This document shows, piece after piece, positions 17,601-45,635 of a stretch of DNA of 53,346 nucleotides (position 1 is its first letter; each line of letters starts with the position of its first letter). Origin of the DNA: a virus (taxonomy: Duplodnaviria > Caudoviricetes); the IMG/VR virus record IMGVR_UViG_3300048065_000224, positions 1 to 53,346 of that record. One strand, 5' to 3'. Under the pieces are notes generated by a model. It did not search any database and was not told the origin of the DNA. It saw only the letters and a list, made by a program, of their open reading frames with translations. The position numbers and the translations under genes were made by a program.

Positions 17601-19409
17601 AACGATAAAAACTTTACATTTAAAAAAGGTCTTTCAGAAAAAATGCAAGCTTTGCAATACATAAGTGAAACGAAAAATGTTAGCACAATAGACGTCAACT
17701 TTGACCAGCTTAACGAACTAAAACACAGCGTCAATAGATTATTGTACAAAGCTAAGAACAGTGGGGATGCAACAAGAGAAGCAGCCTTTGCAGGTCTTAT
17801 GAGAAATGTAAAAGAAAGATTTGATTTTTTCAGAACAGAAGATGGCAAGAGCATTGGTCAACTCTACATAAAAGATGGTGACAGAAGAGTTCCTGTTAAA
17901 GCTTTCTTGGCTGAAGGCGATGCCAAGTACAGTGATCATATGGACAGATACTACGGCAACGACGTCATAGCAGGTTGGCTCGGACTTGGTAAAAAGGATG
18001 GTCGAAAAAACAGAGTACCTAATCAAGATTTTCCTGTAGGTGTTAAGTATGCAAAAAATCCCGTAACATGGTTGGACATGGATCAAATAGCAAACATGGA
18101 TCGTGCAACTAAAGGTCTTGACTTTAATCAAAAGATTAATCAAGGGTTCGGAACATTCAACGAAAAGCTTGGAGTGCATCGTATTGACATAAGCACAGAG
18201 GATGGTAAAGCCGTACAGAAGGCTTTTGAGCTTAAAGGTGCAGAGTGGTTAATCGGTGAATATCGAAAAGGAAACTTAAACTACAATGAACTAAAAGACA
18301 AGATTGATAACATACAAGCCAACTTAAAAGGTGTTGATGCTAACGGAAAAGAAGTATCATTGATTAATCTTAATAAGATAATAGATGATAAATTAGGATA
18401 TGCACCTTCTAATATCAAAAAAGAAATCTATACTGAAGGGGAAGCCATAGCAGATAGGTTTGTGGAAAAACAAGTTTCTGTAGTGAAAGTACAAAGTAAA
18501 GATGTCCAAAAGGGAATTACTGCGGCCACAAATATTATCAAGACATTTACAGCCAATAATATAGACTCAAAGAGTATACTTGAAGGTCTGTTAGGCGGTG
18601 GTACTATGAGACTGAACTCAATAAAAAATTCCTTGATCAAAAACGGTATAGCTAAAGAGAAAGTAGATGAAGTATTAGAGAACTTACTTTTGACTCAACT
18701 TGACAATACTGTTTTTGAAAAGACTGGTAGAATGTCTCTGATAGGGGGTGCAAAGAATGCAAAAATGATCCCCGAATATAACATGAACGTAGATCAACTA
18801 AAAGACTTAGTTGGTTTTTCAGACCCAACAAAAGCAGACGCAGTAAAAGGAATAATTGGAGAAAGCAAATACCAATTCTACACAGACATGATCGGATTCT
18901 TAGAAAACGAAAGTATAAGGACTATTAAAAACGCAAACTTTACTGGAGTTCCCAAGAACCTATCTATAGAAAGTTACATCAGTAGATTCTATTCTATAAA
19001 CAGAGGGGTTATATCTGCACGATATGTTGGAACTGAAGCCGTGCTGCAACAGTTCAGACTTAAAAATCACAGTATGTTTAAGGCGTTGTTGCTAGACAGA
19101 GAAGCAGGTGACTTGTTTCTGAAGATGGTCAAATCAGGAAAACCACTTGAACTAAACGACGAAAAAAGATTTTTTAATCTTATGGGTACAGCTTTGGCTA
19201 AAGCAATTAACACTAACGAAGAGCAAGCTAGTAAGGTAACCATAGATCTAGGAAACTCACACCAGTTTGGTATAACCGAATACCAACTTGCAAGAGATCC
19301 TAGAATACAATCTGCATACGAAGGTATCAGAGATCCACTCAAAGAGAGACTTCAAGAAAAACAATTCCTATTTGACGAGCAAGGCAGACAAATAGTGGAT
19401 GGAAGATAA
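14670..19409 (+). CDS. Very large internal virion (ejection) protein
   Basis: 1579 aa, helical composition, GGAGG RBS; last large gene of the late operon. Confidence 0.6.
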   Translation: MSEPQIEAIAPEKELTDAEKLGFKKLPTDTDETVIKTTPKESLDIRQKASGLQPKSVEKVVEKFTPSIIPGVMDKVDRKVFVDQRKVAPYIDVRSVLNPTDNTEIKEAIMSLKGYKSESPNAPKGTYLPFVAKDYDGRIAEMNKGQATHLIDSQDQAEPIPFEIGLAQYLKAPKDYEPLTVFGIPVAQKIQELTGFPLDEVGGKLVYINRLNKKLKDLGVSTRSRYGIIKYRLQKEPGAFDSKVLEPAFNDYANARGYIRNGVRSVIEAPLFIAGEVFDAVNQEYDKTNLSPIGEGFEIEDPLGETLIESSEGRDELLEDFLPAQSSVIQDHFAALGIVVDLPTSQALASDFSNLPTRGFGVAGEMLIPASYLTKVEKLYGKAEIANFRHFSVKEKRLNPKITPDDILDKYQTMRSKQVAGFDLVSPVFELPFVGGVGKKINGYINAGRLASGMDIRQAGMAMRGRNPAILENSKRIEQQKQDIISFKASRPDMSYQDTKKLELMEADLEKEIIDHRALVHREHIPKFIRDIAGQNKYMIIGAAAGGQLAENTDSDAKIFELVGLATGLVYGQTRTFRGTMNWFKQNIRMGRADGATDRAKTFDLAEQMARNINTFSPEFRDALLSRIRYFGDMQQRLIRAGVSEDLVKRSFSRITGLTVLQTLEEAERLNINTKDLRTFSNLQNLQELSKEKEALIAELRSASISVSNLPAGTQSEKVVEEFYNIVKTATDMADGRLKKLQADTETVEKLLPIRVNAMIKENNGTYLAGSGDEKLQLKDALEYLYDNGVKEVDLENVANSTKKIMDTSDTVSTAVNTAIKKINGEYNLQDALAQTKKVVTGVDKRVKIVGEQKGIPTFKRAGNLTAVLLENSKNRSYNLARANYKILDKAEFVTKNGLPAGRNAKTSANEIVSSLFENMDVIDIQDFGDKGIGRSKRARLLNALEGIGDSTFQRIQQGTGAESISEVVESVLAMARNDKNFTFKKGLSEKMQALQYISETKNVSTIDVNFDQLNELKHSVNRLLYKAKNSGDATREAAFAGLMRNVKERFDFFRTEDGKSIGQLYIKDGDRRVPVKAFLAEGDAKYSDHMDRYYGNDVIAGWLGLGKKDGRKNRVPNQDFPVGVKYAKNPVTWLDMDQIANMDRATKGLDFNQKINQGFGTFNEKLGVHRIDISTEDGKAVQKAFELKGAEWLIGEYRKGNLNYNELKDKIDNIQANLKGVDANGKEVSLINLNKIIDDKLGYAPSNIKKEIYTEGEAIADRFVEKQVSVVKVQSKDVQKGITAATNIIKTFTANNIDSKSILEGLLGGGTMRLNSIKNSLIKNGIAKEKVDEVLENLLLTQLDNTVFEKTGRMSLIGGAKNAKMIPEYNMNVDQLKDLVGFSDPTKADAVKGIIGESKYQFYTDMIGFLENESIRTIKNANFTGVPKNLSIESYISRFYSINRGVISARYVGTEAVLQQFRLKNHSMFKALLLDREAGDLFLKMVKSGKPLELNDEKRFFNLMGTALAKAINTNEEQASKVTIDLGNSHQFGITEYQLARDPRIQSAYEGIRDPLKERLQEKQFLFDEQGRQIVDGR

Positions 19410-25442: not shown

Positions 25443-26972
25443 TTACAAATTAACTTCAGACAAGTCAAGCCAATTTTTACCTATTTTTAATTCTATGCCG
25501 ACTGGCATATCGTATTTGACGCCATACCTACGTTTTGTCTCACTTGGCAAACACAACATTGCCTTTGATAAAACGTCAATACACTGCTGTTCTTCACTTG
25601 GATGAACGTCAAGAACAATTGAGTCATGTACTGTGTTGCAAATCACAGACTTCATATTCAGTTTTCTCATCTCTTTATCGAGCATAACAAGGGCAATAGG
25701 CAATAGATCAGCCGTAGCAAACCCCTGAACAGGGTAATTACATATAGCAGTACGATTAGTAGCTGAACCCCACTCTGTCCATCTAGCGTCAGGAAAAGAG
25801 TATTCACGCCCTGATGGTAGTTTTATGACCTTTGTTGATACAGCCTGCTTCTCTAGCTCTTTGTGCCACTCAGTTACCTGTTCGTACTTCTCTTTGAACT
25901 TCTGATAGTACTGCTGTTGACTACGAGTACCACTCACACCACCATACAAAGGCTTGAATGTGTGTGCCTTTGCATCCTGTCTAGAGCAGCCTATGATAGA
26001 TGCCGTATAACTATGCACATCTGTACCTTTTATAACATCTGCATAGACATTACTATCTTTGGCAAGAAAGCCTGCCACTCGGAACTCCAACTGTGAATAA
26101 TCGCCCTCAAGTATCTTGCCACCCTGAAATCTACTTTCCACAACCTTACGTATGGCAAACGTTGAACCACGTGGCATGTTTTGAAAGTTGGGATTGCGAC
26201 TGGATAGCCTGCCCGTTGCCGTCACACATTGCATGAACTCAGGATGTATGAAATCGTTTTCATCAACGTTGTTTTTCATTCCCTCGACAAATGTCGATAA
26301 GTAAGTACGAAGAGCATTGTATCGTACATACGCTTCACAAAACTCACGTGCATCACCATCTAGTTCAGATAGCCTATCTTCAAGAGTAACCTTGTCTGTC
26401 TTGAAACCTGCTGATGCAGTATCTTTGGGAGTACGTGGTATGAGCTTGAAGCCTGCCACCTCTCCAGTAGATGTGTAGACTACGCCTTTACCTATGCAAG
26501 TTTTGCATATCCGTTTCGCTTTGCCTACACTTCCATCTTTTCTCAAAGGTGTTATCCTACCTGACCCCCGACAAGTTTCACATTGTCTGCCTATTGTCTT
26601 GTACACAATGTCAGTCATTCGTCTCACACATTGCACAAAGTCTTTGTTCTTCATGCGTGTTCTCATCTTAGGCTTGATTGTGTTGCCACGCATCTCGTGA
26701 CCTAGATTGAATGTGATTGACCAAAGTGATTTGTCTTTTACTTTTCTTGAGTAAAGCAACACACTTTTGTCGTCAGGACTGGCAAGGTTGATAGGTGTAT
26801 CGCCCATTGCATTCTTGGCTAGTCTGTTTAGCTTGTTTTCCAACACGGTCATCTCATCCATGTATTCTTTTTCTATCTCATCAAGAGTTGTCTTGTTAAT
26901 CTTTAGTCCGTTTGATTCTATCCTAGATAGGACATTCGTCATTTCAAATGACAGCTTCAGAGTCTGTTTCAT
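25443..26972 (-). CDS. polA: Family A DNA polymerase, polymerase domain with DnaJ-like zinc-finger insert
   Basis: TATGRLSS, motif A DYSQLEFR, motif B RQDAKAHTFKPLYG, motif C VHDS; two CxxCxGxG motifs at 26484-26582; GAGGA RBS before ATG 26972. Confidence 0.92.
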   Translation of the reverse strand: MKQTLKLSFEMTNVLSRIESNGLKINKTTLDEIEKEYMDEMTVLENKLNRLAKNAMGDTPINLASPDDKSVLLYSRKVKDKSLWSITFNLGHEMRGNTIKPKMRTRMKNKDFVQCVRRMTDIVYKTIGRQCETCRGSGRITPLRKDGSVGKAKRICKTCIGKGVVYTSTGEVAGFKLIPRTPKDTASAGFKTDKVTLEDRLSELDGDAREFCEAYVRYNALRTYLSTFVEGMKNNVDENDFIHPEFMQCVTATGRLSSRNPNFQNMPRGSTFAIRKVVESRFQGGKILEGDYSQLEFRVAGFLAKDSNVYADVIKGTDVHSYTASIIGCSRQDAKAHTFKPLYGGVSGTRSQQQYYQKFKEKYEQVTEWHKELEKQAVSTKVIKLPSGREYSFPDARWTEWGSATNRTAICNYPVQGFATADLLPIALVMLDKEMRKLNMKSVICNTVHDSIVLDVHPSEEQQCIDVLSKAMLCLPSETKRRYGVKYDMPVGIELKIGKNWLDLSEVNL

Positions 26973-27513
26973 ATATTTCCTCAAATGTTAAGCCAAAGGC
27001 TTCTAGTTGTTTTACTGCAACCTCTTCGGTTGCGACTACATCGGCAATGCCGTATTCTTCGACTATCTCTGCAGGTATTTCGTAGAAGGTTTTGCCTTCC
27101 TTAATATACGGTGCAACCAAGTCCTTTTCTTTTTGGGTAACGTTATAACGTTTTGCGAGAGCATCAAGTGCCAAAGACCAACGTCTTCCCTTTGACCTAA
27201 TATATTCTGCAACCATCGTATCATACAAAACTCCATCATATTTAAATCCACATGAACGCAACCACATTATGTCAAACTTTATATTTTGTCCAACAAGAAT
27301 GTCAGCCTTGTCCAAGTCACTTTGTAGATGCTCCTTTGTTCCATCGACGTAAGTTTTTTCTTTGTGATAGAAAAATTCATATTTAACATCTTGGTTTAAC
27401 AACCACTTCCAACCCACTGATACTAAACGATTATTAAAGTAGGGCAACGCTGTAGTACCCCCACCTTGTTTATCTCGATGTGTTGTTTCTACGTCTAAAG
27501 TTAACACGTTCAT
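26944..27513 (-). CDS. 3'-5' proofreading exonuclease domain of PolA, encoded as a separate ORF
   Basis: ExoI LDVET, ExoII GQNIKFD, YDTM, ExoIII YGIADV; start ATG 27513 coupled to the helicase stop. Confidence 0.88.
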   Translation of the reverse strand: MNVLTLDVETTHRDKQGGGTTALPYFNNRLVSVGWKWLLNQDVKYEFFYHKEKTYVDGTKEHLQSDLDKADILVGQNIKFDIMWLRSCGFKYDGVLYDTMVAEYIRSKGRRWSLALDALAKRYNVTQKEKDLVAPYIKEGKTFYEIPAEIVEEYGIADVVATEEVAVKQLEAFGLTFEEIYETDSEAVI

Positions 27514-28739
27514 TAATAATATACCCCCCTTGTGATATCTATTTGGGCATTGATCATACCATGCCATCCGTTGATTTTATTTTTGGATATACAGATGTGT
27601 CTGACTATGTTGTCAATCTCACTTGAACCAGTCTTGCCTATGCCTATGATGATGTCAGCTTCTCCTGCCTTTCCTGTCTTGGAATTGTCAAGCATGGCAT
27701 AGTCAATAAATTGACGGTCATGGGCATCGTAACTTGCTTGGCTTACTGCCCACACAAGACACACATTTCGCTTGGCTATCTCCCTTGCAGATACATAAGT
27801 TTCTTTTAGTCGCTCATCTCCACGATTGTACTCGCCTTTTATTCTGAACTTGTCTAACTGGTCACAGAACATCACGTCAGGCTTGTTTAACTTGGCGTAT
27901 TCATCAACCTCTTCGATTGATGTACCTACTGAATCCATGATTGTTAGGTAAGGTTCTATTTCTTTGACGTATCTATCTAGCAACTCAAACCTTTTATCGA
28001 CCATCTCTTCTTTTGTCAGTTCAAAGTACGACTGAATTATTCTTAACTTGATACGTTTGGCAGGCTCTTCATTTGCCCAGTACACAACCTGAAAACCTTG
28101 TCGTATGTACGATGCAGCCAAAAAGCAACAGAACGTTGTTTTGCCCACTTCAGGTCTTGCAAACAAGATACCTAAGTTACCTCGATCTAAACCTTTTATT
28201 CTTTCGTTTATCAGATTGAATGCGAATGGAAAGTCATTGTCTCCCGCTTCTTCTGACAACAGTTCATTCAAGTCTTTGTCAACGATAGTATAAGTTGTCT
28301 TGTCACCTATTCTTCCGTCGTCTACACTTTCGATAAGTTTCTTGAGTTCTCCAAACTCGTCACTATCTCCAGTAAATATGTCAAGTGCCTTTTCTCCAAT
28401 CTGTCTAGCTTTGTCACGTAACCACAGATTGTTTACAATGTCAGTATGTAGTTCGTCACTTTCTTTTGGTGCAATGAGTTGTGCTATCATATCTTGCACA
28501 CGATTCCTAGATGAATCAGGCATGGCAGGATTACGATCGTTGAATATTGTGGATAACTCTGCTACAGATAGACTACGCTCATACTTTGTGTGTGAGTACA
28601 CTATCGTATCGAATATGTCTTTGAGTTCATTGTCGAACATAGTCCGATCAATTTTATTTTTTACTTTGTTGAAAAAATCGATGTTAAGACAAAAGCCTAA
28701 CACTTGTCTGTCAATCGATATAACGCCTGATGAAGTCAT
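27513..28739 (-). CDS. SF4 (DnaB/T7 gp4-like) replicative helicase
   Basis: Walker A ARPEVGKT, Walker B FCDQLD, VSQA, EADIIIGIG, KNK. Confidence 0.9.
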   Translation of the reverse strand: MTSSGVISIDRQVLGFCLNIDFFNKVKNKIDRTMFDNELKDIFDTIVYSHTKYERSLSVAELSTIFNDRNPAMPDSSRNRVQDMIAQLIAPKESDELHTDIVNNLWLRDKARQIGEKALDIFTGDSDEFGELKKLIESVDDGRIGDKTTYTIVDKDLNELLSEEAGDNDFPFAFNLINERIKGLDRGNLGILFARPEVGKTTFCCFLAASYIRQGFQVVYWANEEPAKRIKLRIIQSYFELTKEEMVDKRFELLDRYVKEIEPYLTIMDSVGTSIEEVDEYAKLNKPDVMFCDQLDKFRIKGEYNRGDERLKETYVSAREIAKRNVCLVWAVSQASYDAHDRQFIDYAMLDNSKTGKAGEADIIIGIGKTGSSEIDNIVRHICISKNKINGWHGMINAQIDITRGVYY

Positions 28740-30263: not shown

Positions 30264-31436
30264 ATGAATTGGCTTAATTTATGTAGTGGTGGCGAAACTG
30301 GTAGGCAATCTGTAAAGGAGCTTGGATTACCAGTATCTAATTGGTTTACATCTGAGATAGATAAATTTGCTATGAAAGTAGCAGATGATAATCACGATGA
30401 TCTTGTCCATCTAGGAGATATACGAACTGTAATAGACAAAACAAAAAACATTCCCATAGATGTTATTCTGTGTGGATCACCTTGTCAGGGATTTTCTGTA
30501 GCGGGGAAAGGTTTAAACTTTGAACACCCTCAATCGAAGTTGTTCTTTGAGTTTCTTGAAATATACAAATACCACTATGAGCGTTTCCCTCAATGCAAAT
30601 TGCTTTTTGAGAATGTCCGTATGAAAAAGGAATGGCAAGATATGATCTTTGATATGTTACGTGAAATCAATCCAAAACTTAAATTGTACATAATCAATTC
30701 ATCGCTTGTATCTGCACAGAATAGAGTACGTATGTACATAACTGATTTTGAATTTGATATACCTAAAGATCGAAATATCAAGTTAAGAGATATTGTCGAG
30801 TGTGGTTGTGTAGATAGAGAGAAGTCATACTGTCTAGATGCAAACTATTGGAAAGGTGGTAACCTTAAAATGTACTTTGAGAAGTCACGTAGACAATTAG
30901 TATTCAAAAATCACAATGTAGAGAAAAGTGACACTAATTGTATTCAGGTTGGAGTAGCTGATCTGAATGGACACGATATCTTAAAGCGTGTTTATTCTGT
31001 CGAGGGAAAGTCGCCTACATTAAATACGTGTGGTGGTGGCAATCGAGAACCAAAGATACTTTGTAAATCTGCGTCAATTACTGGGCGTAGACTAGATAGA
31101 AATGGAGTGCGAAAGGATAACGATTTGTCAATTCCAATTACACAAGCTTTAGAAGTATCTGATTCGGACAAGTCACGTTGTCTATCTACAATAACAAAGG
31201 ATACCGTTGTATCGCCTTTGCCAGTTGGTCGCTATCCAAACGCCTATACAGATAGTGCTTTACAATGGAGAAAACTTACTGTAAAGGAATGTTGTAGGTT
31301 ACAAACATTGCCTGATGATTATTGTAAAGCAGTAAGTAACAGTCAGGCTTACAAGATACTTGGCAATGGTTGGACTAACGAAGTCATTAAGTTTATTTTG
31401 AAAGGAAAACAACATGGCAATGATCGAACCAATTAG
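30264..31436 (+). CDS. C5-cytosine DNA methyltransferase
   Basis: GSPCQGFS (IV), ENV (VI), QNRVR (VIII), RLQT, GNGW (X); motif I is atypical (LCSGGETG). Confidence 0.9.
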   Translation: MNWLNLCSGGETGRQSVKELGLPVSNWFTSEIDKFAMKVADDNHDDLVHLGDIRTVIDKTKNIPIDVILCGSPCQGFSVAGKGLNFEHPQSKLFFEFLEIYKYHYERFPQCKLLFENVRMKKEWQDMIFDMLREINPKLKLYIINSSLVSAQNRVRMYITDFEFDIPKDRNIKLRDIVECGCVDREKSYCLDANYWKGGNLKMYFEKSRRQLVFKNHNVEKSDTNCIQVGVADLNGHDILKRVYSVEGKSPTLNTCGGGNREPKILCKSASITGRRLDRNGVRKDNDLSIPITQALEVSDSDKSRCLSTITKDTVVSPLPVGRYPNAYTDSALQWRKLTVKECCRLQTLPDDYCKAVSNSQAYKILGNGWTNEVIKFILKGKQHGNDRTN

Positions 31437-35542: not shown

Positions 35543-35863
35543 ATGACTATTATTTATGAAAACATGCCCAAGCGATCTATGGGATTAACAAACGTTGCAA
35601 AGGTCGAGAACTTCAAAAGCTTTAGGTCTGGCAATCCTATTGCGAACCAGTTCAGGATTACTTTGCAAAATGGAACTGAAGTGTTTCAAAGTTATTCTTC
35701 TGTAATTGCAATAAAGGTTAATGAACAGACTTTTCTTGATCGTACTTGCTGGAACTATTCAAATACAACTTCAAGATACAGAAAAGAATTCTTGAATGAA
35801 GATACCAAAACGACTAAAGAAAAGATTAAAAACGGTGTTTATGTTATGATGGATTTAAACTAA
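35543..35863 (+). CDS. Conserved phage hypothetical early protein
   Basis: NQF...FQSYSSVIA...WNYSNTTSRYR..FL; GAAAGGAAA RBS. Confidence 0.75.
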   Translation: MTIIYENMPKRSMGLTNVAKVENFKSFRSGNPIANQFRITLQNGTEVFQSYSSVIAIKVNEQTFLDRTCWNYSNTTSRYRKEFLNEDTKTTKEKIKNGVYVMMDLN

Positions 35864-35889
35864 TAAAACTTTAAAGAATACCTTTAACG

Positions 35890-35924
35890 AACGCCTTAGA
35901 TTAGTTTCTAGGGCGTTTTTCTTT
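35890..35924 (+). terminator. Rho-independent terminator ending early operon
   Basis: AACGCCTTAGA-loop-TCTAGGGCGTT followed by TTTCTTT. Confidence 0.8.
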
Positions 35925-36253
35925 GCTTAACTCTAATAAATACCTAAACGGTTGTAATTGCTAGGTTTGTTTCTTTGGTATTGTTTTGGTATATGCTCGC
36001 AATCATACTACCAAACGCAGACTTTAAGGTTAAGTTATACAACTTATAAAAATGTCAATGGCAGTTTGTGTGCGTGCATACACGAAAGGTATACATCAAA
36101 GGTTAAACTTTTGGGAGTTTGTAAGTTGTCTATGCTAGCCTTTGGAAATCTGTTACAGGTATAAGGGTTGGCAAGTGCCACCGGGGGGTACTGGGTACTT
36201 GTATGCAATGTCGGCATATTTTTACCCAAAATGGTTACTTGTACAACTTACGG

Positions 36254-36321
36254 TGCAACGCATTACGTACAACCCTATTTGCAACGCATTACGTACAACC
36301 CTATTTGCAACGTATTATGTA
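36254..36321. repeat. 26-bp tandem repeat, about 2.6 copies
   Basis: TGCAACGCATTACGTACAACCCTATT at 36254 and 36280; degenerate partial copy at 36306. Confidence 0.92.
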
Positions 36322-36367
36322 GACGTGGTGGGGGTATACGTTGTATTTCCCCGGAGGATCTACTCCG

Positions 36368-36396
36368 ATTGTATCCATCAGATCCACTTTTGTCAA
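36368..36396 (-). promoter_or_regulatory. Near-consensus leftward promoter into the non-coding repeat region
   Basis: - strand TTGACA-17 nt-TACAAT. Confidence 0.7.
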
Positions 36397-36413
36397 TAAA
36401 ATAATTATTTTTC

Positions 36414-36442
36414 TTGACGTATGCGTGCTAAGTTCCTATTAT
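36414..36442 (+). promoter_or_regulatory. Promoter of packaging operon
   Basis: TTGACG-17 nt-TATTAT. Confidence 0.75.
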
Positions 36443-36552
36443 ATAGGTAACAAAGCATCATTTAAAGCGTATGCAACCAATCATATCACATCTAAACCAG
36501 TGCATTTTGGCTTTATTTGAAATGATCCTTTGTTTTTATCTAAGGAAACTCC

Positions 36553-36774
36553 ATGTTTGAAGCATTTGTACTGATTTGTTTAGTAGGACAGCCTACTATG
36601 AATGCAAATTGTGAAGAACTTATGGATACACGAGGCCCGTACAAGACTCACGACAAGTGTTTATCACGAGTATACGAGATCCAAAGGGAATTACCCTTGT
36701 ACAAACCTCACATGGAAGCAAGAGCATACCGTTGTGACGAATTTACTCCCGAAACAAAGAAGCAAAGAGCGTGA
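36553..36774 (+). CDS. Small Cys-containing protein with hydrophobic N-terminus
   Basis: AAGGA RBS; MFEAFVLICL...C...C...C. Confidence 0.7.
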   Translation: MFEAFVLICLVGQPTMNANCEELMDTRGPYKTHDKCLSRVYEIQRELPLYKPHMEARAYRCDEFTPETKKQRA

Positions 36775-37144
36775 AATAAGCCCTCAACAAGAGGAATTTC
36801 TCGATCATCTCTTTGAAAATGGTGGCAATGTCACCGATGCAGCCCTAAAAGCAGGTTATGCAAAGGGGTCTGTGACATGGCTACGCAATAGTTTAGCAGA
36901 TGAGATCATCCGACGCACCCAAAACGTGCTGTCTATGAACGCATTTAAGGCGGCTACACGCCTTGTAACGACAATTGACAACCCAGTACCCGAAAGAGGT
37001 GACGACCTACGCTTCAGGGCGGCAGAATCGCTGTTAAACAGGGTCGGACTGGGTAAACAAGAAACAACTAACGTAAATGTACAGGCAGTACACGGTATTG
37101 TCCTGTTGCCACCCAAGAAAGACGTAGTCATCGATGGAAATTGA
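36734..37144 (+). CDS. terS: Terminase small subunit
   Basis: QQEEFLDHL..NGGNVTDAALKAGY HTH; upstream of TerL. Start uncertain (GTG 36734 chosen). Confidence 0.8.
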   Translation: MTNLLPKQRSKEREISPQQEEFLDHLFENGGNVTDAALKAGYAKGSVTWLRNSLADEIIRRTQNVLSMNAFKAATRLVTTIDNPVPERGDDLRFRAAESLLNRVGLGKQETTNVNVQAVHGIVLLPPKKDVVIDGN

Positions 37145-37250
37145 GTGGTGGCAAGCACTCTTGGTTACAATGGTATCGATTAACACAACAATCAACCTTA
37201 TTGTGTTCTTTAGAGGTAGGAAAATAATGAAAAGGGAACGTAATGGCTGA
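37134..37250 (+). CDS. 38-aa single-TM peptide (not in ORF track)
   Basis: MEIEWWQALLVTMVSINTTINLIVFFRGRK..., overlapping both neighbours. Confidence 0.5.
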   Translation: MEIEWWQALLVTMVSINTTINLIVFFRGRKIMKRERNG

Positions 37251-38928
37251 TACACCCAAGCGTGGTCGCCCAAAGAAAGACCCCAACGCTCCTAAATCCA
37301 GATATTATTACAGTCCAGAAGTCAAAGCACGTAAGCAAACACAACGCAGACTATCTGAAGCAAAGAAACGAGCAGCAAAGGTAACGCAACAGGCTGAAAG
37401 CAAACGACGTTACGCACGAAAGCTTGAAGAAAAAATAACCAAAATAGATAAGGCTCTGAACAGCAATGAAACTACCGTCATTGATAAAAAAGATCTTGAC
37501 CAACTTCCAGATGTCGTTGAACAACTGGTGGATGGGCGTGAAATTATTTTTAAGCCAAACGAAGGACCTCAAGAAGAATTTCTTTCCTCAAGTGAAAGAG
37601 ATGTTCTGTACGGTGGTTCAGCAGGTGGAGGAAAAAGCTTTGCCCTTCTTGCAGACCCGTTACGGTATTGCCACAATAGCAACCATCGTGGGCTTCTTCT
37701 TAGGCGTACTCTGGATGAGCTAACAGAACTTATTGACAAATCTCGGCAGTTGTACCCACGGGCGTACCCCGGTGCAAAGTTCAGAGAGTCAAAGTCAACA
37801 TGGCACTTTCCGTCAGGTGCAACGATTTGGTTTACGTATCTTGACAAAGACAAAGACGTAACACGATTTCAGGGTCAGTCCTTTAACTGGATAGGCATTG
37901 ATGAGATAACCCAATATCCCTCGCCTTATGTTTGGGATTATCTCCGTTCACGACTTAGAGCAACTGATCCTGAACTACAAAAAAATCTGTACATGCGTTG
38001 TACAGCGAACCCCGGAGGGGTCGGAGGTTGGTGGGTAAAAAAGATGTATATTGACCCATCACAATATGGTTCGACTTTTCCTGCAATGGATATCGAAACA
38101 GGCAGACCTTTTGTATGGCCCAAAGGGCATGAGAAGGAAGGTGAACCCCTGTTTTATCGTAGGTTCATACCTGCACGTCTAACAGACAACCCATACTTGT
38201 TGGCTGACGGACAATACGAAGCGATGTTGCGTTCGCTACCCGAAGTCGAGCGTAAGCGACTTCTTGAAGGCGATTGGGAAGTAACGGAAGGTGCAGCCTT
38301 CCCAGAGTTCAGTAGAAGTAAACATGTTACACCGTATTTTGACCTTCCGCCAAACTTCCCACGAATACGAGCAGCCGACTACGGCTATGCAAGTCCTTCT
38401 TGCGTTCTTTGGGCTGCTATTGATTGGGATAATAATATCTGGGTTTATAGGGAGTTATACGTAAAACAGTTGACAGCAGAAGAGTTAGCTGATAGAATAC
38501 TAGAAGTAGAACAAGAAGACCCGACTCCCCACTATACAGTACTTGACTCATCGTGTTGGAACAAAACAGGCTTTGGTCCTTCCATAGCCGAAACAATGAT
38601 GAGATGTGGAGTGCGTTGGACACCCTCAGACAGAAACAGACTTCAAGGTAAAATGGAAATACATCGTAGGCTTGCTGATGACCCTCGAACAAACGAACCT
38701 AGACTACGAATATTTCCGAACTGTGTCAATCTTATCAAGCAGCTATCAGGCATACCTCTTAGCAAAACAAATGCAGAAGATGTGGACACAAAGGCAGAAG
38801 ATCACGCATACGATGCACTGCGATATATGTTAATGACAAGGATGACAGGATATGTGTCGATTCATAAAACGCTTGGTGGTATCAAGAATCAGGTCTACCA
38901 AATGCAAGACCAAACATTTGGGTATTAA
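37243..38928 (+). CDS. terL: Terminase large subunit
   Basis: YGGSAGGGKS Walker A, IGIDE Walker B, TANPGG, DYG, and DHAYDALRY nuclease motif. Confidence 0.95.
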   Translation: MADTPKRGRPKKDPNAPKSRYYYSPEVKARKQTQRRLSEAKKRAAKVTQQAESKRRYARKLEEKITKIDKALNSNETTVIDKKDLDQLPDVVEQLVDGREIIFKPNEGPQEEFLSSSERDVLYGGSAGGGKSFALLADPLRYCHNSNHRGLLLRRTLDELTELIDKSRQLYPRAYPGAKFRESKSTWHFPSGATIWFTYLDKDKDVTRFQGQSFNWIGIDEITQYPSPYVWDYLRSRLRATDPELQKNLYMRCTANPGGVGGWWVKKMYIDPSQYGSTFPAMDIETGRPFVWPKGHEKEGEPLFYRRFIPARLTDNPYLLADGQYEAMLRSLPEVERKRLLEGDWEVTEGAAFPEFSRSKHVTPYFDLPPNFPRIRAADYGYASPSCVLWAAIDWDNNIWVYRELYVKQLTAEELADRILEVEQEDPTPHYTVLDSSCWNKTGFGPSIAETMMRCGVRWTPSDRNRLQGKMEIHRRLADDPRTNEPRLRIFPNCVNLIKQLSGIPLSKTNAEDVDTKAEDHAYDALRYMLMTRMTGYVSIHKTLGGIKNQVYQMQDQTFGY

Positions 38929-38932
38929 GTAA

Positions 38933-40909
38933 ATGGCAAAAGGTATTACATTTGAACCACAATTTGAAGCTATTCTATCTGATAAGGGTAGAATAAGAGG
39001 GGAGTCTCTTAAGACTACTCCTATAGGTCAAATATTCAGTAACACAACTGATAGAAAAAATCTTGCAAAACTTCTTACAAAAGCAGGATTAGAAAAATAC
39101 ACTATAGATGATATTTTTGGGAAGAATACACGAAAGTTTGTAGAAGAGTTAGTTTACACTAAAAAATTAACTAACGCTCAAAAGAAAGATTTAATAGGCC
39201 CATTCAAACCACTTCTTGCTGAAGTTGGTATATCTGCACAAGGAACAACAAACCCACTTCGTTCACACATGACAAATGTCGTGGGTGATTCTGTAATGAA
39301 GTCACAAGGATTTGGTACTGATCCTTTAAGACTTATACCTGCAAACTATCCATCACAAGCTTATCAAGCTTTAAAAAACTTAGCAGCAAAATATAATGCA
39401 GCAGGAAGACAAGAAGAGAAAACATTTCTACTTATGTTGATGTTGGGTGGTTACAGACCTTCCGATTTTAAAAATATAAAATTTGAAAACATTGATTTTG
39501 AAACAGGCTTAGTACAAGACGTAAAATTAAAGACAGACACAGCAGGTACAATTAACTTAGCATATATGCCTGAAGCTCAAAGAGATATTATAAAATCTTA
39601 CATGGAAAGCACGGGAAGAACAAAAGGTTTGGTTTTTCAAAAAGTAAATTCTCTTGTTGATAATATAAATGAAGATTTAACTAAAACAAATGTAAACATA
39701 AAATACTTAGTCCAATCAAAGAAAGAGCTTGAATCAAGACCTATGTCTATCTATGATTTAAGAAGAATAAAAGAAAGTGACTATACAGCAGCAGGCTACG
39801 ATCCTAACAGTTACATTAGAAAGTTAGCAACGTGGCGACCTAAAAAAGGTAACGTAGAACAATACATAGCAGGTGTTACAGTTGGTGGACAAATAGAAGA
39901 TGCTAACGCAAAAGCTTTTGCACCTTACGTTCTATTAACAGAAGGCAACCTAACACAAGACGGCACAAAAAATCCTGCACAGTTCTTAGAAGATGTGGGC
40001 GTTAAAACAACTGAATATACTCAGCAGTATATGACAACAAAAAAGTCTTTTAAAAGTCTTCCTACATTTAAACAAAAGGAAGTTGTAAAGTTTTTTCCAA
40101 ATGTAGCATACCCAGACGAAGTAGACGGTATGTCTATATCTGACCCACAAGACATCAAAATTTTAAGTCCTGAAAATGCTGAGTTAAATCAACAAAAAGC
40201 AGGTCTGCAATTACAAAAAGAAATTGCACAATCAGGATCAGAACTTATTGCAGCAAAACAACAATACTTAATGGATTTACAACAGGCAGGCGACGTTGAC
40301 GAACAGATATCTTCTGAACAAGATAAACAAGCTGCCCAGAAAAAACAAAGTAAACTTAATCAAGCTTTAGAAAAAGGCAACAAGTTTTTAGATTGGGCAG
40401 GTAACAATCTTAAAAGTATAACTGGTACTAGCTTAACAGCTTTAGGAGCTTTTGGACTCGCAGAAGAAGCCAAGTCAGACTTTTTAAAGTATAAGGAGCG
40501 TGGATTTAGTGACGTGGGTGCAGGATTAGGTGCAGGTGTAGAAACAATAAGAGATGTTGCAATTGACACAGTAGTGGGTCTTAACGTTCCAAGAAATATT
40601 GCACAGCTTAGTCTTATAGGTAGTCCTGCGAGTGAGGGTGCAGATATTTTACCTGCAGGTGAACCTAAAAGAATGGGCATGGAGTCCGAGTCTGCAGAAT
40701 TTTTGAATCAGATGCAAACTAGTTTTCAACCTCCAGAAGAAGGAGGATCACAAGCTTTGAATATAATCGAACAGGATACCAACGTAGGTGACAGAATGAG
40801 TACATTTGGCAGAACGCCTGATGTATCTCCGGGGTTTGTTACCCCACCTTCTCGATCAGAACTAGCTGACGAGACACAACGGCAACAAAACTTTATGGGA
40901 GTAACTTAA
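38933..40909 (+). CDS. Tyrosine-recombinase-fold domain fused to virion-protein-like C-terminus
   Basis: GYR175PSDF, K200, Y274DLR277R, W301, Y311; Q-rich coiled coil and Gly/Ala hydrophobic helices in the C-terminal half. Confidence 0.6.
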   Translation: MAKGITFEPQFEAILSDKGRIRGESLKTTPIGQIFSNTTDRKNLAKLLTKAGLEKYTIDDIFGKNTRKFVEELVYTKKLTNAQKKDLIGPFKPLLAEVGISAQGTTNPLRSHMTNVVGDSVMKSQGFGTDPLRLIPANYPSQAYQALKNLAAKYNAAGRQEEKTFLLMLMLGGYRPSDFKNIKFENIDFETGLVQDVKLKTDTAGTINLAYMPEAQRDIIKSYMESTGRTKGLVFQKVNSLVDNINEDLTKTNVNIKYLVQSKKELESRPMSIYDLRRIKESDYTAAGYDPNSYIRKLATWRPKKGNVEQYIAGVTVGGQIEDANAKAFAPYVLLTEGNLTQDGTKNPAQFLEDVGVKTTEYTQQYMTTKKSFKSLPTFKQKEVVKFFPNVAYPDEVDGMSISDPQDIKILSPENAELNQQKAGLQLQKEIAQSGSELIAAKQQYLMDLQQAGDVDEQISSEQDKQAAQKKQSKLNQALEKGNKFLDWAGNNLKSITGTSLTALGAFGLAEEAKSDFLKYKERGFSDVGAGLGAGVETIRDVAIDTVVGLNVPRNIAQLSLIGSPASEGADILPAGEPKRMGMESESAEFLNQMQTSFQPPEEGGSQALNIIEQDTNVGDRMSTFGRTPDVSPGFVTPPSRSELADETQRQQNFMGVT

Positions 40910-40910
40910 T

Positions 40911-41129
40911 ATGCCTAACAATAACTATAATTATGGTGCAGCTTATATTATGGGATCAGATAAGACATCTGTAAACGATGATATGGGTTCTAAGCAACTA
41001 TACAGAGAAGGTCTTGAATTTACTACAGCAGTAGACCAAGATGCTTTACAGGTTGACATGCCAAAGAAGCAAACTAAACCTACAGTCGAAGCTTCTTTAT
41101 TTAAAATGGCTGAAGAAAGAGACTATTAA
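40911..41129 (+). CDS. Hypothetical protein
   Basis: GGAG RBS; lies between recombinase-like gene and portal. Confidence 0.7.
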   Translation: MPNNNYNYGAAYIMGSDKTSVNDDMGSKQLYREGLEFTTAVDQDALQVDMPKKQTKPTVEASLFKMAEERDY

Positions 41130-41146
41130 TAACACATAGGTAAATC

Positions 41147-43279
41147 ATGGCTGATGAAAACTTTCTTCAACCTGCTGATGATACTGCAATACCTGTAGAA
41201 AATCCTAGCGAACAGATGCCCGGATTAGCAGGGTATATCAAAAGCAAATTTGAAGATTCAGAAAATGGCAGACGCAGTTATGAACTACGTTGGTTGCAAG
41301 CCTTTAAAAACTACAGAGGTATTTATGATTCGTCTACTCAGTATAGAGATTCGGAACGTTCTCGTGTATTTATAAAGGTAACTAAAACAAAAGTTCTTGC
41401 TGCATATGGGCAAATAATCGATATACTTTTTTCTAACAAGAAGTTTCCGATAGTTGTTGAGCCAACTCCAGTACCAGAAGGTATTGCAGAGTTTGCACAT
41501 CAAACAACACCTCTAGATGAAATAGTAGAACAAGATCCATACGGTTTTGAAGGAGACGGGAGAGATTTACCTCCCGGTGCTACGGAAGCAAGCAAAAAAG
41601 ATTTAGACTTTTTAGGTGGGCTGCAAGGTAGATACGCTAACGCTAACTTGTCTCCCGGACCTTCTCTTGGTGGCGAACCACAAATAAGTCCTGCACAAAA
41701 AACAGCACTTAATTTAGAAAAACTTATACACGATCAACTAACAGATACTGACGCTGTTACCGTCTTACGTGATGCTATTTTTGAATCTTGTTTACTTGGA
41801 ACAGGGATAGTAAAAGGTCCGTTTAATTCTTACAAACGAGTTCATAAATGGGATAGAGATGATAATGGAGAAAAAACTTATGCTCCATATGAAAAGATTG
41901 TACCAAGAATTGAGTATGTGTCTTTATGGGATTTTCATCCTGATCCATCAGCAACAAGCATAGAAGATTGTGAATACGTCATACAAAGACATCGTATGAA
42001 CAGACAACAGCTTCGTGCTTTAATAAACAGACCTTATTTTTACAAAGATGCCATAGAAGAGTGTCTAGCTAAAGGTCCTAACTACGAAGACAAGTACTAC
42101 GAAGATACTATCAGAGAAGACGACACCGAGCCATACTTTCAAGAAAACAGGTATGAAGTACTTGAGTATTGGGGTGTTATTGACAAAAAACACGCCGATG
42201 AAATCGGTATGGATGGTATAGAGGAGATATCTGAGTTAGAACAAATCCAAGTTAATGTTTGGACTTGTGGCAACATGATACTTCGCTGCGTCCTTAATCC
42301 GTTTATGCCTGCACGAATACCATACCAAGCATTTCCATACGAGACTAATCCATACCAGTTGTGGGGAGTTGGCGTAGCAGAAAACATGGAGTTTTCTCAA
42401 AAGTTAATGAATGGTCACTATCGTATGGCTATTGATAACTTAGCACTTGCAGGTAATCTAGTATTTGACATTGACGAAGCAAGCTTAGTTCCCGGACAAA
42501 ACATGGATATATTCCCCGGTAAGATATTTAGACGACAGTCGGGTGTAACTGGCACAGCAATCAACGGATTAAAGTTTCCAAACACTGCACCTGAAAACAT
42601 ACAAATGTACCAAATATCTCGACAACTTGCAGACGAAGATACAGGAATACCATCTATATTACATGGGCAAACAGGTGTGACAGGCACGGGTAGAACAGCA
42701 TCAGGTTTATCTATGTTGCTTGGTGGTGCAAGCTTATCTTTAAAAACTGTTATAAAGAATATAGATGACCACTTGTTGAAACCGATGGGTGAAGCATACT
42801 TTCAGTGGAATATGCAGTTTACTGATAACGTACCCGAAATAGAAGGCGATCTTGAGATCAAACCTCGTGGTACTGCAGCAGTGATGCAAAAAGAGGTACG
42901 TAGTCAAAGACTAACAACCCTGTTGCAAACTGCAAGTAACCCAATGCTTGCACCTTTTGTAAAGATACCAAACCTTATGAGAGAGCTTGCGATAGCACAA
43001 GATATAGATCCAGATAGTTTGGTTAACGACGTAAGCGAAGCACAGATATTCGCAGAAATACTTAGAGGACTTCAAAATGCTCAACAAGAAGCAAGCCAAC
43101 AACCTCAATCCCCTGATCAACAACAGTCAGGCATGGAACAGTCTGGAGGAGTACCTGCAGGAGCTAACCCAAGTGACGATTCAGGCGTTGGTGGCGGCAC
43201 GATCGGAACTGGAAGTGTTCCAACTGCAGGGGAAACTGGCTTTACTGGAACAGATCAAGAAACTCAAGGACAATCATAA
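41147..43279 (+). CDS. Portal protein
   Basis: 710 aa; KTKVLAAYGQI, GTGIVKGP, DFHPDP, WGVGVAENM, TASGLSML; position after TerL. Confidence 0.88.
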   Translation: MADENFLQPADDTAIPVENPSEQMPGLAGYIKSKFEDSENGRRSYELRWLQAFKNYRGIYDSSTQYRDSERSRVFIKVTKTKVLAAYGQIIDILFSNKKFPIVVEPTPVPEGIAEFAHQTTPLDEIVEQDPYGFEGDGRDLPPGATEASKKDLDFLGGLQGRYANANLSPGPSLGGEPQISPAQKTALNLEKLIHDQLTDTDAVTVLRDAIFESCLLGTGIVKGPFNSYKRVHKWDRDDNGEKTYAPYEKIVPRIEYVSLWDFHPDPSATSIEDCEYVIQRHRMNRQQLRALINRPYFYKDAIEECLAKGPNYEDKYYEDTIREDDTEPYFQENRYEVLEYWGVIDKKHADEIGMDGIEEISELEQIQVNVWTCGNMILRCVLNPFMPARIPYQAFPYETNPYQLWGVGVAENMEFSQKLMNGHYRMAIDNLALAGNLVFDIDEASLVPGQNMDIFPGKIFRRQSGVTGTAINGLKFPNTAPENIQMYQISRQLADEDTGIPSILHGQTGVTGTGRTASGLSMLLGGASLSLKTVIKNIDDHLLKPMGEAYFQWNMQFTDNVPEIEGDLEIKPRGTAAVMQKEVRSQRLTTLLQTASNPMLAPFVKIPNLMRELAIAQDIDPDSLVNDVSEAQIFAEILRGLQNAQQEASQQPQSPDQQQSGMEQSGGVPAGANPSDDSGVGGGTIGTGSVPTAGETGFTGTDQETQGQS

Positions 43280-43301: not shown

Positions 43302-45635
43302 ATGGCTAATATACTTGAAAGATATATAAATAATTTATTTGAAAGAGAATTAGGTCTAGGAAAGGCTATAGCTCCGTACGTTCCAATTCCTGCAATTCCG
43401 TTTGCACCTAATGTTCCAAGTCCGTTTGACTTTGATACTAGACGAAGAACTAGTTTTCCTGTATATGGAAGATCTCCTACGACTCCAACTCCTGATTTAG
43501 ATATATTTGATGAGCCTGATGGTTCTGAAGCACCTCCAGAAATAACAATAGAAACTATAACAGGAGATTTATCTAGTTATATTAATCAACCTACAACTCC
43601 ACAAAGTTTTGTAGATAAACAGTTGGGTCTTGAGGTTAGTAAAGAATTAGCTTCTGGGCAAGACAGAGTCACGGGTATGGGAGGTGCATTGACTCAATTT
43701 GCAAGTCTAACAGGTTTATCAGCATCTATGATCGATGCAATCGGCGAAAAGTCAAAGCAAAATCTTGAATCAATCGTTGCTAATGCAGCACTAGGTATTC
43801 CCGGATACGGAATAGGCAGAGTTAACAATCAAACTGTAGGTATATCTCCGGGAGGTAGAATATCTGGAACTGTACCAACTAATCTAACAACTGAGCAAAT
43901 GAATCAAATACAAGATGTTTTGGGAGGTAAATCTGGAGCATTAGGACCTGCTATGCAAGAATATTCGGTAGCAGGCGGTAGACTTGATATGGGCAAACCT
44001 CAAACGCAAGCCATGTTAGATTTTGAAAAAACTGTAATAGATGCAAAAGGTTTATCAATTGAGCAAAAAGCAGGTCTATTAGGGTATGACAGATTAACTA
44101 ATCCGTTTGAACGTTCTCGAATGACGCAAAATTACTACACAATGACTCCGCTCCAAGAAATTCTGGAGAACAAACAAAAAACAGCAGAAAATAGAGAGGG
44201 TATGAGTTCTACATCAGGATCTATGTCTATGGGTCTTGAGACAGATATAGACGCACAGCAGAGTCAAAAAAATCCTATGGGAATAAACATTGGTATTGAT
44301 ATGGCAAATATAACAGGGCCCACTACAACTGTAGATTCACAAGGTTATGATTTAGGTGGCGGTTATGGAGGACCTACAGGAGGACCTAGTGGCTTAGATG
44401 TATCCTCAGAAGTTAGTTCTGGTGGTTATTCTGACAATGAAGCAGGCGACAATCAAGACGGTGGCTTTGGTGGTGGTGGTTGGACTGCATATGGTGGCAA
44501 AATAGGAAATTCTGACAAAGGATTTGTATCAAAGACTCAGACAATAAAAGGTGTAGGTCTTATTAAGCCTGAAGAAACTTTTGTTGAAACTGATATGGTT
44601 AGAGACAGATTTGAATTTGATGCAGCAGATGGAGACTACGTTGTTAACGGTCCTGCTTCAAAAGAAAATGAAGGTGAGATAATCGGTCTTGTAAATTCTG
44701 CTATAAACGAATTAAAAAAAGAAGGGGTTGACATACGTGTAGGAAATCCTAAAATAAAAGATAAGAACAAAGTTCCGTTAATTGTAGCTTCCTCAGAAAT
44801 ATACATACCTAAAGTGGTAGCTGAGAAAATAGGTTATCCTATACTAGACAAAATAAATGAGTCTGGCAAAGCTGAAGTAACTCGCTTAAAGAATGAGCTT
44901 GGAAATAATTCTCCAGATGACGATCGACAAGAAGCTTATGAAGGAATGCGTGTAAGAAACCCTCAACAAGGATTTTTGTTTCGACGACCTGAACTTAATC
45001 TAACTAATCCTAATACTGATAAACCCCAAGAAGATGCTTTTGTTCCGGGAATATCTGACGAACCAGTAGAAATGACTCTAGATCAACAAAGATTTTTTAA
45101 TGACTACGAGTTTGGGGATATTAAAAAAGCAATTAAAAAAACAGAGATACAAGGCTTTGAAAAAAATCCGTTTATATTTACAGGCGTAAAGGCTAAGAAG
45201 GGTAAAAGTAGTTCTGCATTTGGTCCTATGCAAATAACCAAAAGTTTAATAGAGGACTTTGAAAGCAGAAGTCCTGATTATAAAACTCTAAGTAACGAAG
45301 AAAAAAAATACTTACAAGCTTTAAAATTACAAGGTGAAGACAAGATAAACAAAGAACTGTACGGTGTTCTTAAACGTGGTCCTAAAGAGATGAGACGAGA
45401 CGTTGATGCAAAAAAAGTATATGGCAAAAAAGCACAAGGATTGAAGCCTTACGGAAAAGGCACTATTGATCCTGAGATGCACAAAAAGTATTACGATAAA
45501 ATTGCTGATGTCATTCTTCTTCACAAATTAAAAGATCACAAAACTATAGAAGACGCACTTGCATCTTACGGAGAAGGTGCAGGCTACGGAGAAAAAGTCT
45601 TAAATGATTTATTGGATATTATACAGATAAAATAA
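43302..45635 (+). CDS. Internal virion protein with C-terminal lysozyme-like/lytic transglycosylase domain
   Basis: AIKKTE...SSAFGPMQIT...ALASYGEG...YGEKV resembles SLT motifs. Confidence 0.6.
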   Translation: MANILERYINNLFERELGLGKAIAPYVPIPAIPFAPNVPSPFDFDTRRRTSFPVYGRSPTTPTPDLDIFDEPDGSEAPPEITIETITGDLSSYINQPTTPQSFVDKQLGLEVSKELASGQDRVTGMGGALTQFASLTGLSASMIDAIGEKSKQNLESIVANAALGIPGYGIGRVNNQTVGISPGGRISGTVPTNLTTEQMNQIQDVLGGKSGALGPAMQEYSVAGGRLDMGKPQTQAMLDFEKTVIDAKGLSIEQKAGLLGYDRLTNPFERSRMTQNYYTMTPLQEILENKQKTAENREGMSSTSGSMSMGLETDIDAQQSQKNPMGINIGIDMANITGPTTTVDSQGYDLGGGYGGPTGGPSGLDVSSEVSSGGYSDNEAGDNQDGGFGGGGWTAYGGKIGNSDKGFVSKTQTIKGVGLIKPEETFVETDMVRDRFEFDAADGDYVVNGPASKENEGEIIGLVNSAINELKKEGVDIRVGNPKIKDKNKVPLIVASSEIYIPKVVAEKIGYPILDKINESGKAEVTRLKNELGNNSPDDDRQEAYEGMRVRNPQQGFLFRRPELNLTNPNTDKPQEDAFVPGISDEPVEMTLDQQRFFNDYEFGDIKKAIKKTEIQGFEKNPFIFTGVKAKKGKSSSAFGPMQITKSLIEDFESRSPDYKTLSNEEKKYLQALKLQGEDKINKELYGVLKRGPKEMRRDVDAKKVYGKKAQGLKPYGKGTIDPEMHKKYYDKIADVILLHKLKDHKTIEDALASYGEGAGYGEKVLNDLLDIIQIK
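44728..44755 (+). promoter_or_regulatory. Possible internal promoter feeding scaffold/capsid genes
   Basis: TTGACA-16 nt-TAAAAT inside the CDS. Confidence 0.35.

Follow-up and report, generated by a model that had tools for sequence, protein, structure and literature searches.

HMO-2011-type podophages are among the most abundant marine viruses. In the parts of the comparative study by Qin et al. (2022, PMC9038755) drawn on here, subgroups I and III of these phages carry ordinary integrases, roseophage CRP-3 is reported to integrate, no lysogeny genes could be identified in subgroups IV-X, and subgroups that lack an ordinary integrase had been read as strictly lytic. The window analyzed in this work, by which we mean the whole stretch of 53,346 bp, is a complete IMG/VR virus record (IMGVR_UViG_3300048065_000224) with the layout of an HMO-2011-type marine podophage, and its portal protein is 54% identical to that of Pelagibacter phage HTVC033P and 47.5% to that of Puniceispirillum phage HMO-2011. 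Judging from a G+C content of about 38%, the presence of a ribonucleotide reductase (RNR) gene and portal similarity, its clade probably corresponds to subgroup X of PMC9038755. On the plus strand, between the large terminase gene terL and the portal gene, the window carries a 658-amino-acid (aa) open reading frame (ORF) at 38933-40909 which, according to a structure model, encodes a tyrosine-recombinase-type protein (integrase/Cre/Xer) with a two-domain clamp fold, followed by a long C-terminal extension. This gene is a fixed component of the terminase-portal block in one HMO-2011-type subclade.

A preliminary description of this stretch had read the ORF as a Cre-like tyrosine recombinase domain joined to an ejection-protein-like tail. 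The ORF and the six residues singled out in it (R175, K200, Y274, R277, W301 and Y311) are all present, and the recombinase domain is supported by fold, conserved residues and purifying selection. The AlphaFold2 model, built on 23 relatives (mean pLDDT 68.9), reaches 69-96 per 10-residue block over aa 1-430 and falls below 50 over 485-518 and 524-658; within it, residues ~20-340 fold as a two-domain tyrosine recombinase. Searches with this model, a check that the preliminary description had proposed, place recombinases on top in the PDB with Foldseek, in VIA-align and in the viral structure library BFVD. The leading Foldseek matches were XerA, Tn1549 Int, Brujita Int, Cre, XerH, lambda Int and Flp (best E 1.8e-4), the first four at E<=1e-3 all being XerA chains. 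In VIA-align, tyrosine recombinases or recombinase-fold proteins occupy the first 44 of the 50 rows listed, among them Brujita Int (5vfz; Z 12.4, model 28-334 against Int 19-288), XerA (4a8e; Z 11.0, rmsd 3.2 A over 166 residues, model 131-333), the lambda Int core (Z 9.6 over 149 residues), and Cre and lambda Int with both domains covered (Z 8.1-9.2). Such alignments extend over both domains, model 20-305 aligning to Cre 20-317 and the Tn1549 Int alignment spanning model 29-399. In BFVD the top 42 rows are integrases, Tyr-recombinase-domain proteins or unnamed entries. At the sequence level the signal is faint but genuine: the protein matches the 'integrase' family phrog_1 (E 4.9e-6) and, by phmmer, XerA 4a8e (E 0.16); it scores 23.2 bits in a six-frame PF00589 search, and one relative reaches 27.5 bits for this family with neighbouring stretches.

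According to these alignments, the protein begins with a helical N-terminal domain (aa 1-130; 38933-39322, +) that aligns to the core-binding domain of Cre, lambda Int and Brujita Int and has R22, G99, N107, P108 and R110 invariant in the set A1. The catalytic domain follows (aa 131-340; 39323-39952, +), as delimited by the XerA 4a8e alignment and by the PF00589 match at aa 156-291. Relatives at E<=1e-3 numbered 39 in a set of 5.8 billion proteins and 40 in a set of 1.84 billion representatives, all of them metagenomic and many marine. Conservation was assessed mainly in an alignment of 64 sequences, down to 24-30% identity, and additionally in 39 representatives of other alleles at the locus, an alignment in which the K200 and Y311 columns are shaky; residue equivalence was based on motif order, spacing, the Pfam match and one low-probability hhalign alignment rather than on residue-level structural superposition. 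In the main alignment R175, D178 and K200 are kept in 64/64 sequences, and R277, E281, R296, T300, R302 and Y311 in all 63 residues present, so that the five catalytic positions R175, K200, R277, R302 and Y311 are conserved in 63-64 of 64. Arg I, in the motif GGYRPSDF (R175 codon 39455-39457, +), is also kept in 39/39 distant alleles and in 120/120 pooled sequences, and the low-probability hhalign alignment puts it on the R of lambda Int 'TGQRVGD'. The beta-hairpin Lys (K200; 39530-39532, +) is found in 22/39 distant alleles, where its column is unreliable. Arg II of the HxxR box (R277; 39761-39763, +) is kept in 39/39 distant alleles and in 116/120 pooled sequences, the other four being gaps, and the presumed nucleophile (Y311; 39863-39865, +) in 29/39 of the shaky distant alignment.

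Two of the positions originally proposed had to be replaced or dropped. W301, taken as the His/Trp-III residue, is variable (W 35, L 24, F 2, A 1 of 64), and its neighbour R302 (39836-39838, +) is the conserved one. Because R302 is conserved, stands nine residues before Y311 and is R (20) or H (19) in the 39 distant alleles, it is R302 and not W301 that holds this place; the same nine-residue spacing is found in XerD (H270-Y279) and Cre (W315-Y324). Y274, at the first-His position, does not belong to a conserved set either (Y 37, E 20, K 4, Q 1, H 1 in the 64-sequence alignment); this position is H in the distant member P0076. Of 14 allele types inspected, 13 show an xxR box, a GH or GR ~20-25 residues further on and a Tyr 8-21 residues later (the other, L108, had no row), and a strict pattern of 8-9 residues from H/R to Tyr occurs in only 67/120 sequences, indicating that this spacing varies.

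This conservation bears on whether the fold is used for catalysis at all. The protein could be a recombinase fold without catalysis, either a DNA-binding regulator of the SPbeta YopR or phi3T SroF type or a structural head component, and both YopR and SroF are indeed among the structure matches (Z 6.5-7.8). They rank below all true recombinases listed, however, and the full catalytic set including the Tyr is kept in 63-64 of 64 sequences and under purifying selection, which makes a non-catalytic role quite improbable.

The gene had been described as lying in the packaging and head block rather than in a lysogeny module, and this holds across the whole clade, the position between terL and portal being kept in relatives. 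In the window, terL (37243-38928, +; phrog_979, E 2.2e-61; PF03237, E 2.1e-9) ends 4 nt before the ORF, and 1 nt separates the ORF from a 72-aa ORF (40911-41129, +; 50.7-100% identity across the loci where it was found), which is followed by the portal gene (41147-43279, +; PF23899, E 5.5e-28; phrog_332, E 1.9e-78). Among 45 IMG/VR loci with a clear family match, terL lies directly 5' in all 42 that have upstream sequence, and the 72-aa ORF or portal lies 3' in all 39 that have downstream sequence. A TerL-seeded search extended this to the best 80 of 587 IMG/VR hits (74-98% identity), only 21 of which are recognised by the family profile. Both terL and portal are held in 55 of these loci, all with a gap of 1.9-2.5 kb that in 54 is filled by a single ORF of 542-759 aa and a small ORF. 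Similarly, 45 of the 46 metagenome loci with at least 2.6 kb downstream carry an ORF of 519-738 aa at the same spot. The exceptions, an ORF split into 275 and 399 aa in IMG/VR (L124, 1569-3393) and a 424-aa ORF in the metagenomes (L159, 2717-3991), may represent frameshifts, assembly errors or decaying copies. Insertion of a single-gene mobile element was considered and rejected, with one ORF in 99 of 101 spanning loci, a broken one in two and no empty site.

The gene was not found in cultured phages, either by tblastn against 50,697 phage records or in the cultured relatives inspected: terL adjoins portal in HMO-2011, three or four small ORFs lie between them in HTVC033P and HTVC104P, and nothing does in Vibrio phage CHOED. 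The last 21 residues of the 72-aa ORF match the small ORF immediately 5' of portal in HTVC033P. The main-text parts of PMC9038755 covered here do not mention a recombinase locus between terL and portal, although its supplementary tables may list the orthogroup, and we found no description of the locus in the literature on HMO-2011-type integrases, tyrosine recombinases in virions or ejection, integrases between terminase and portal, or hypervariable genes.

The position is constant, and the enzyme that occupies it is strikingly diverse. Pooling IMG/VR and metagenomes gave 141 alleles, 120 of distinct sequence. Grouped by their first 430 aa at 50% identity, they form 44 clusters, and these ~44 enzyme-part clusters sit on backbones whose TerL proteins are 72-99% identical. 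PF00589 is the one enzyme family that recurs, being detected at E<=0.01 in 13 of the 39 allele representatives. By blastn of the window against the loci and by junction alignment, the exchanged cassette spans 38938-40746. At its 5' edge a nucleotide identity of 95-97% breaks off five bases into the ORF, at 38938, or at 38968 in four loci (L015, L027, L029, L034); at its 3' edge identity resumes at 40464 (L007-L009), 40663-40673 (L004, L010-L013) or 40746 (L015-L017). On backbones with 94-99% identical TerL, aa 1-410 are either 82-97% (L003-L006) or 22-35% identical (L007-L017, L043, L044, L047), and the last 98 residues are 60-93% identical regardless of the enzyme part; L007-L017, for instance, combine an enzyme part of 27-35% with a TerL of 94-99% and a tail of 60-85% identity. 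Backbones with 72-79% identical TerL have a different tail type (10-25% identity). The last ~100 residues, that is, track the backbone while the clamp is exchanged.

Since the 5' junction consists only of the conserved terL end plus ATGGCA, without a repeat, homologous recombination in the flanks suffices to explain the exchange. A site-specific junction at this edge was rejected, as homology simply ends there and no inverted repeat accompanies it. The exchanged part is under purifying selection, with dN/dS of 0.04-0.21 over aa 1-410 (nine within-class pairs), and the corresponding values are 0.14-0.57 for aa 411 to the end and 0.12 for terL (one pair). In run X4 the depth, as computed from assembled contigs, is ~300-660 on the flanks versus ~1-2 over 39076-39943, and because depth in the enzyme region collapses between deep flanks other alleles dominate there in that run. 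Contigs from two RNA libraries over parts of the gene are no sign of transcription, and two apparent joints (38309 to 41354 and 38817 to 41100), with sides of 22-23 letters, were not relied on.

The extra C-terminal region is as the preliminary description had it, a long Q-rich helix, Gly/Ala-rich helices and an acidic tail, with a length of ~250 aa. Between it and the catalytic domain lies a conserved extension (aa 341-410; 39953-40162, +) modelled at pLDDT 65-94 per block, in which Q350, G356 and Y366 are invariant in A1 and which is reached by Flp alignments up to residue 411. A single long Q-rich helix follows (aa 411-495; 40163-40417, +; 15 Q in 85 residues, model helix 413-492), modelled with low to middling confidence and likely a coiled coil. 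The next segment (aa 496-560; 40418-40612, +) is predicted to form Gly/Ala-rich, moderately hydrophobic helices (508-522 and 527-546 in the model), and the protein closes with the backbone-linked, acidic and disordered tail (aa 561-658; 40613-40906, +), whose conserved end reads FGRTPDVSPGFVTPPS...QQNFMGVT. The ESM Atlas returned for aa 400-658 only unnamed viral clusters (best score 0.85); in the window, a C-terminal profile matched no other ORF and no targeting peptide shared with other proteins was found. When portal, the 72-aa ORF and tail aa 561-658 were predicted as a complex, the score of 0.02 (mark 0.32) gave no verdict and was counted neither way.

Taken together, we tentatively favour a reading in which the gene encodes a catalytically competent, late-made enzyme that is tethered through its tail to a backbone-encoded partner, most likely in the head or packaging machinery. 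The N-terminal ~340 residues would close as a two-domain clamp around DNA, where the scissile phosphate would be activated by R175, K200, R277 and R302 and attacked by Y311; the resulting covalent 3'-phosphotyrosyl intermediate would undergo religation or exchange. The clamp would set DNA specificity and be swapped as a cassette by homologous recombination in the terL end and the tail-coding end; because it is swapped in this way, near-identical phages are proposed to have enzymes that differ widely in specificity. The ~250 residues at the C-terminus would oligomerise the enzyme and tie it to its backbone-encoded partner, and with late expression the enzyme would be delivered with, or act on, packaged DNA. 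The one indirect argument for a virion-packaged, co-injected protein is that its last ~100 residues stay with the backbone when the enzyme part changes. Delivery is plausible because podovirus internal proteins can carry enzymatic 'passenger' domains into the cell, as stated in the parts of Hardies et al. (2016, PMC4819975) used here. A bolder version, which we think unlikely, is that the enzyme is loaded into the capsid via its backbone-specific tail and injected, and would be the first virion-delivered site-specific tyrosine recombinase of a tailed phage. If this were true, a gene expressed late would act at the immediate-early stage, for example in integration or circularisation or by attacking the DNA of a rival or of the host, and dozens of recognition modules could be kept by frequency-dependent selection among co-circulating near-identical phages.

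Several observations weigh against an enzyme of this kind in the head or packaging machinery. The PF00589 match at aa 156-291 (E 4.5e-4) reaches 20.5 bits, below the Pfam cut-off of 27.1 bits, a profile of 23 relatives had no match among PDB sequences at E<=10, and hhalign against single Cre and lambda Int sequences gave non-significant probabilities of 0.6% and 1.9%. Kyte-Doolittle 19-residue maxima over aa 496-560 are 0.8-1.0 (0.7-1.7 in relatives), mostly below those of a membrane helix, and large ORFs that resemble internal virion proteins by size and position lie elsewhere, at 11605-19409. Allele diversity at a fixed spot is also typical of the integrase modules of temperate phages. Furthermore, no candidate recombination site was found, the window having no inverted repeat of at least 18 nt within 60 nt and no perfect palindrome longer than 16 nt. 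Lastly, the region 35864-36550, which had been suggested as a substrate, shows no co-variation with the enzyme. The window and L044 share ~90% identity across this region, against ~31% between their enzymes. Given this conservation, and a repeat number independent of the allele, it is unlikely to be the cognate site.

The region 35864-36550 itself is a ~690-nt intergenic region 5' of the small terminase gene terS with a terminator-like hairpin at ~35890-35920, a conserved block at ~36150-36400, three 26-nt tandem repeats at 36241-36321, present in one to three copies in relatives irrespective of the allele, and a promoter-like TTGACG-17 nt-TATTAT at ~36414-36445. Possible roles are those of a late promoter, a pac region or an RNA of no known family.

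The lack of a recognisable site bears directly on a second explanation, namely that the protein is a Cre/Xer-like recombinase acting on a site of its own phage, and that it would either close terminally redundant genomes into circles after their entry or resolve multimers ahead of packaging. Cre-lox lies near pac in phage P1. The P1 record has lox and cre annotated, the gene studied here stands beside the terminase genes in the same orientation, Cre and XerD/XerH are among the fold matches (Z 7.8-9.1), and the two ends of the contig share 127 nt, as expected of a circular or permuted assembly. Yet no lox-like inverted repeat was found in the window, and the conservation of 35864-36550 between phages with such different enzymes speaks against it as the target. 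An embedded DNA site in the nucleotide-conserved island 39446-39537 was rejected as well, since synonymous positions vary freely among 25 distinct sequences and no embedded element is indicated there, and an invertible segment was rejected with only five weak, distant inverted pairs in the window. Since a housekeeping resolvase is not expected in ~44 divergent classes either, we regard this explanation as rather improbable.

The palindrome search also bears on relatives of the same fold that act on DNA ends or supercoils, that is, a protelomerase that makes hairpin ends or a type IB topoisomerase-like swivel that relaxes DNA non-specifically during packaging or ejection. TelN and TelK are of similar length, and topoisomerase IB also has a Lys at the position equivalent to 274, which is K in 4/64 of the relatives. 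Vaccinia topoisomerase (Z 6.4) and TelA (Z 6.3) are among the VIA-align matches but rank below the 44 recombinase-type rows, TelA far below the integrases. The longest perfect palindrome in the window is 16 nt (3465-3480), shorter than a protelomerase telomere site calls for, and no hairpin-type inverted repeat was found. A non-specific swivel, in turn, gives no reason for ~44 classes of a swapped DNA-binding clamp. The protelomerase idea, raised in the preliminary description, is disfavoured by these results, and both variants seem to us very improbable.

A stronger competitor is a lysogeny integrase that has been displaced into the late operon, with allele classes that would stand for different bacterial attachment sites and an attP within the coding sequence, an arrangement known from SSV-type archaeal viruses, in which attP lies inside the int gene. 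The nearest structures are phage and transposon integrases and Xer proteins, and many divergent alleles at one locus resemble integrase modules. The protein is also the sole recombinase of its genome: no second PF00589-like stretch occurs in the window or in 10 large related records (none or one match each), where the matches always fall within a frame of 557-658 aa. The ordinary integrases of subgroups I and III and the integration of CRP-3 (PMC9038755, in part) point the same way. On the other hand, the gene has the orientation of the late block and sits tightly within it, where gaps of 4 nt and 1 nt leave no space for a non-coding attP-like spacer beside it. To our knowledge, known integrases lack an extension such as the ~250-aa one that all alleles retain.

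Other signs of lysogeny were equally sparse. ARAGORN and Rfam found no tRNA or tRNA-like fragment in the window, no Rfam family reaches the gathering score there, and only two chance-level matches at E<=10 fall on 35800-41200. No repressor, antirepressor or excisionase family was found among the 38 ORFs scanned against Pfam and PHROGs, many small ORFs being without any family. Short peptide patterns found no relative in one genome for each of 185,579 species, a weak negative. Close TerL proteins occur on just two contigs of metagenome-assembled genomes, one with only phage genes among those searched (L057) and one a 4.2-kb fragment that ends within terL (L058), and the contigs with the best 80 TerL hits, whether from IMG/VR or from metagenomes, are at most 56.8 kb long. 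With hosts not identified and short search patterns, these prophage and attachment-site negatives are weak. They nevertheless argue against a displaced integrase, as do the subgroups IV-X without identifiable lysogeny genes (PMC9038755, in part), and we consider this explanation possible but doubtful.

The rest of the genome follows the usual plan, with a minus-strand replication block (primase, DnaB-like helicase, split family-A polymerase, Cas4-like nuclease and class II RNR) and a plus-strand block of terS, terL, portal, scaffold-like protein, capsid and then tail genes. Directly 3' of portal, a 777-aa ORF (43302-45635) is mosaic too among close relatives in which portal is 90-98% identical, with 78% identity in L004, 56% in L013, 48% in L007, and pieces of 34% and 50-73% in L006 and L016. 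Two variable large genes therefore flank portal. The 777-aa ORF matches no Pfam or PHROG family, and its model (mean pLDDT 47.8) is too poor for a structure search. The family-A DNA polymerase (25443-27567, -) is encoded in two separate ORFs, one of 207 aa for the exonuclease and one of 513 aa for the polymerase; the latter has a weak zinc-ribbon-like match to PF15777 at aa 123-175, which fits the partial DnaJ-type insert described for HMO-2011-type polymerases (PMC9038755, in part). In addition, the early plus-strand block encodes a C-5 cytosine DNA methyltransferase (30264-31436; PF00145, E 7e-34), and a tail-fibre-like ORF (3673-5661) combines internal direct repeats of 56-229 nt (3955-5201) with a C-terminal intramolecular chaperone domain (PF13884, E 3e-18).

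The recombinase-type gene is present in every clade member examined and is the most variable gene of the packaging block. If it is an integrase, the lifestyle assigned to the clade needs revisiting; if it is linked to the virion or to packaging, it would be a new use of the tyrosine-recombinase family. In both cases the position offers a natural library, in which ~44 divergent recombinase modules share one scaffold.

In this regard, the locus can be compared with four groups of described systems. With the simple phage and Xer recombinases (Brujita Int 5vfz, XerA 4a8e/5hxy, Cre, the lambda Int core and Tn1549 Int) the protein shares the clamp fold (Z 8.5-12.4), the order Arg-Lys-xxR-H/R-Tyr, the nine-residue final spacing and the lack of an arm-binding domain. 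It differs from them in being ~250-300 residues longer at the C-terminus, in having no conserved first His and an Arg in place of His/Trp at position III, in scoring below the Pfam cut-off, and in its location inside the terminase-portal block with no adjacent non-coding site. Protelomerases (TelK, TelN, TelA) and poxvirus topoisomerase IB belong to the same catalytic fold superfamily, and poxvirus topoisomerase IB is packaged in the virion; their structural scores are lower (Z 6.3-6.4) and the window has no palindromic target. The integrases of HMO-2011-type subgroups I and III, such as that of CRP-3, come from the same phage group and enzyme superfamily, but according to the same parts of PMC9038755 the integrases of subgroups I-III are located upstream of the replication module, whereas the window gene lies between terL and portal.

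The fourth group comprises the podovirus ejection proteins and the MuF-type head proteins. The MuF/SPP1 gp7-type proteins are portal-adjacent head proteins with swappable effector domains. The window protein matches neither kind in sequence or fold, and its gene lies outside the presumed internal-virion-protein block. With this group (for the ejection proteins, PMC4819975 in part) it shares a place as a late gene beside portal, the joining of an enzyme module to a helical or disordered one, and one end conserved with the backbone while the other varies.

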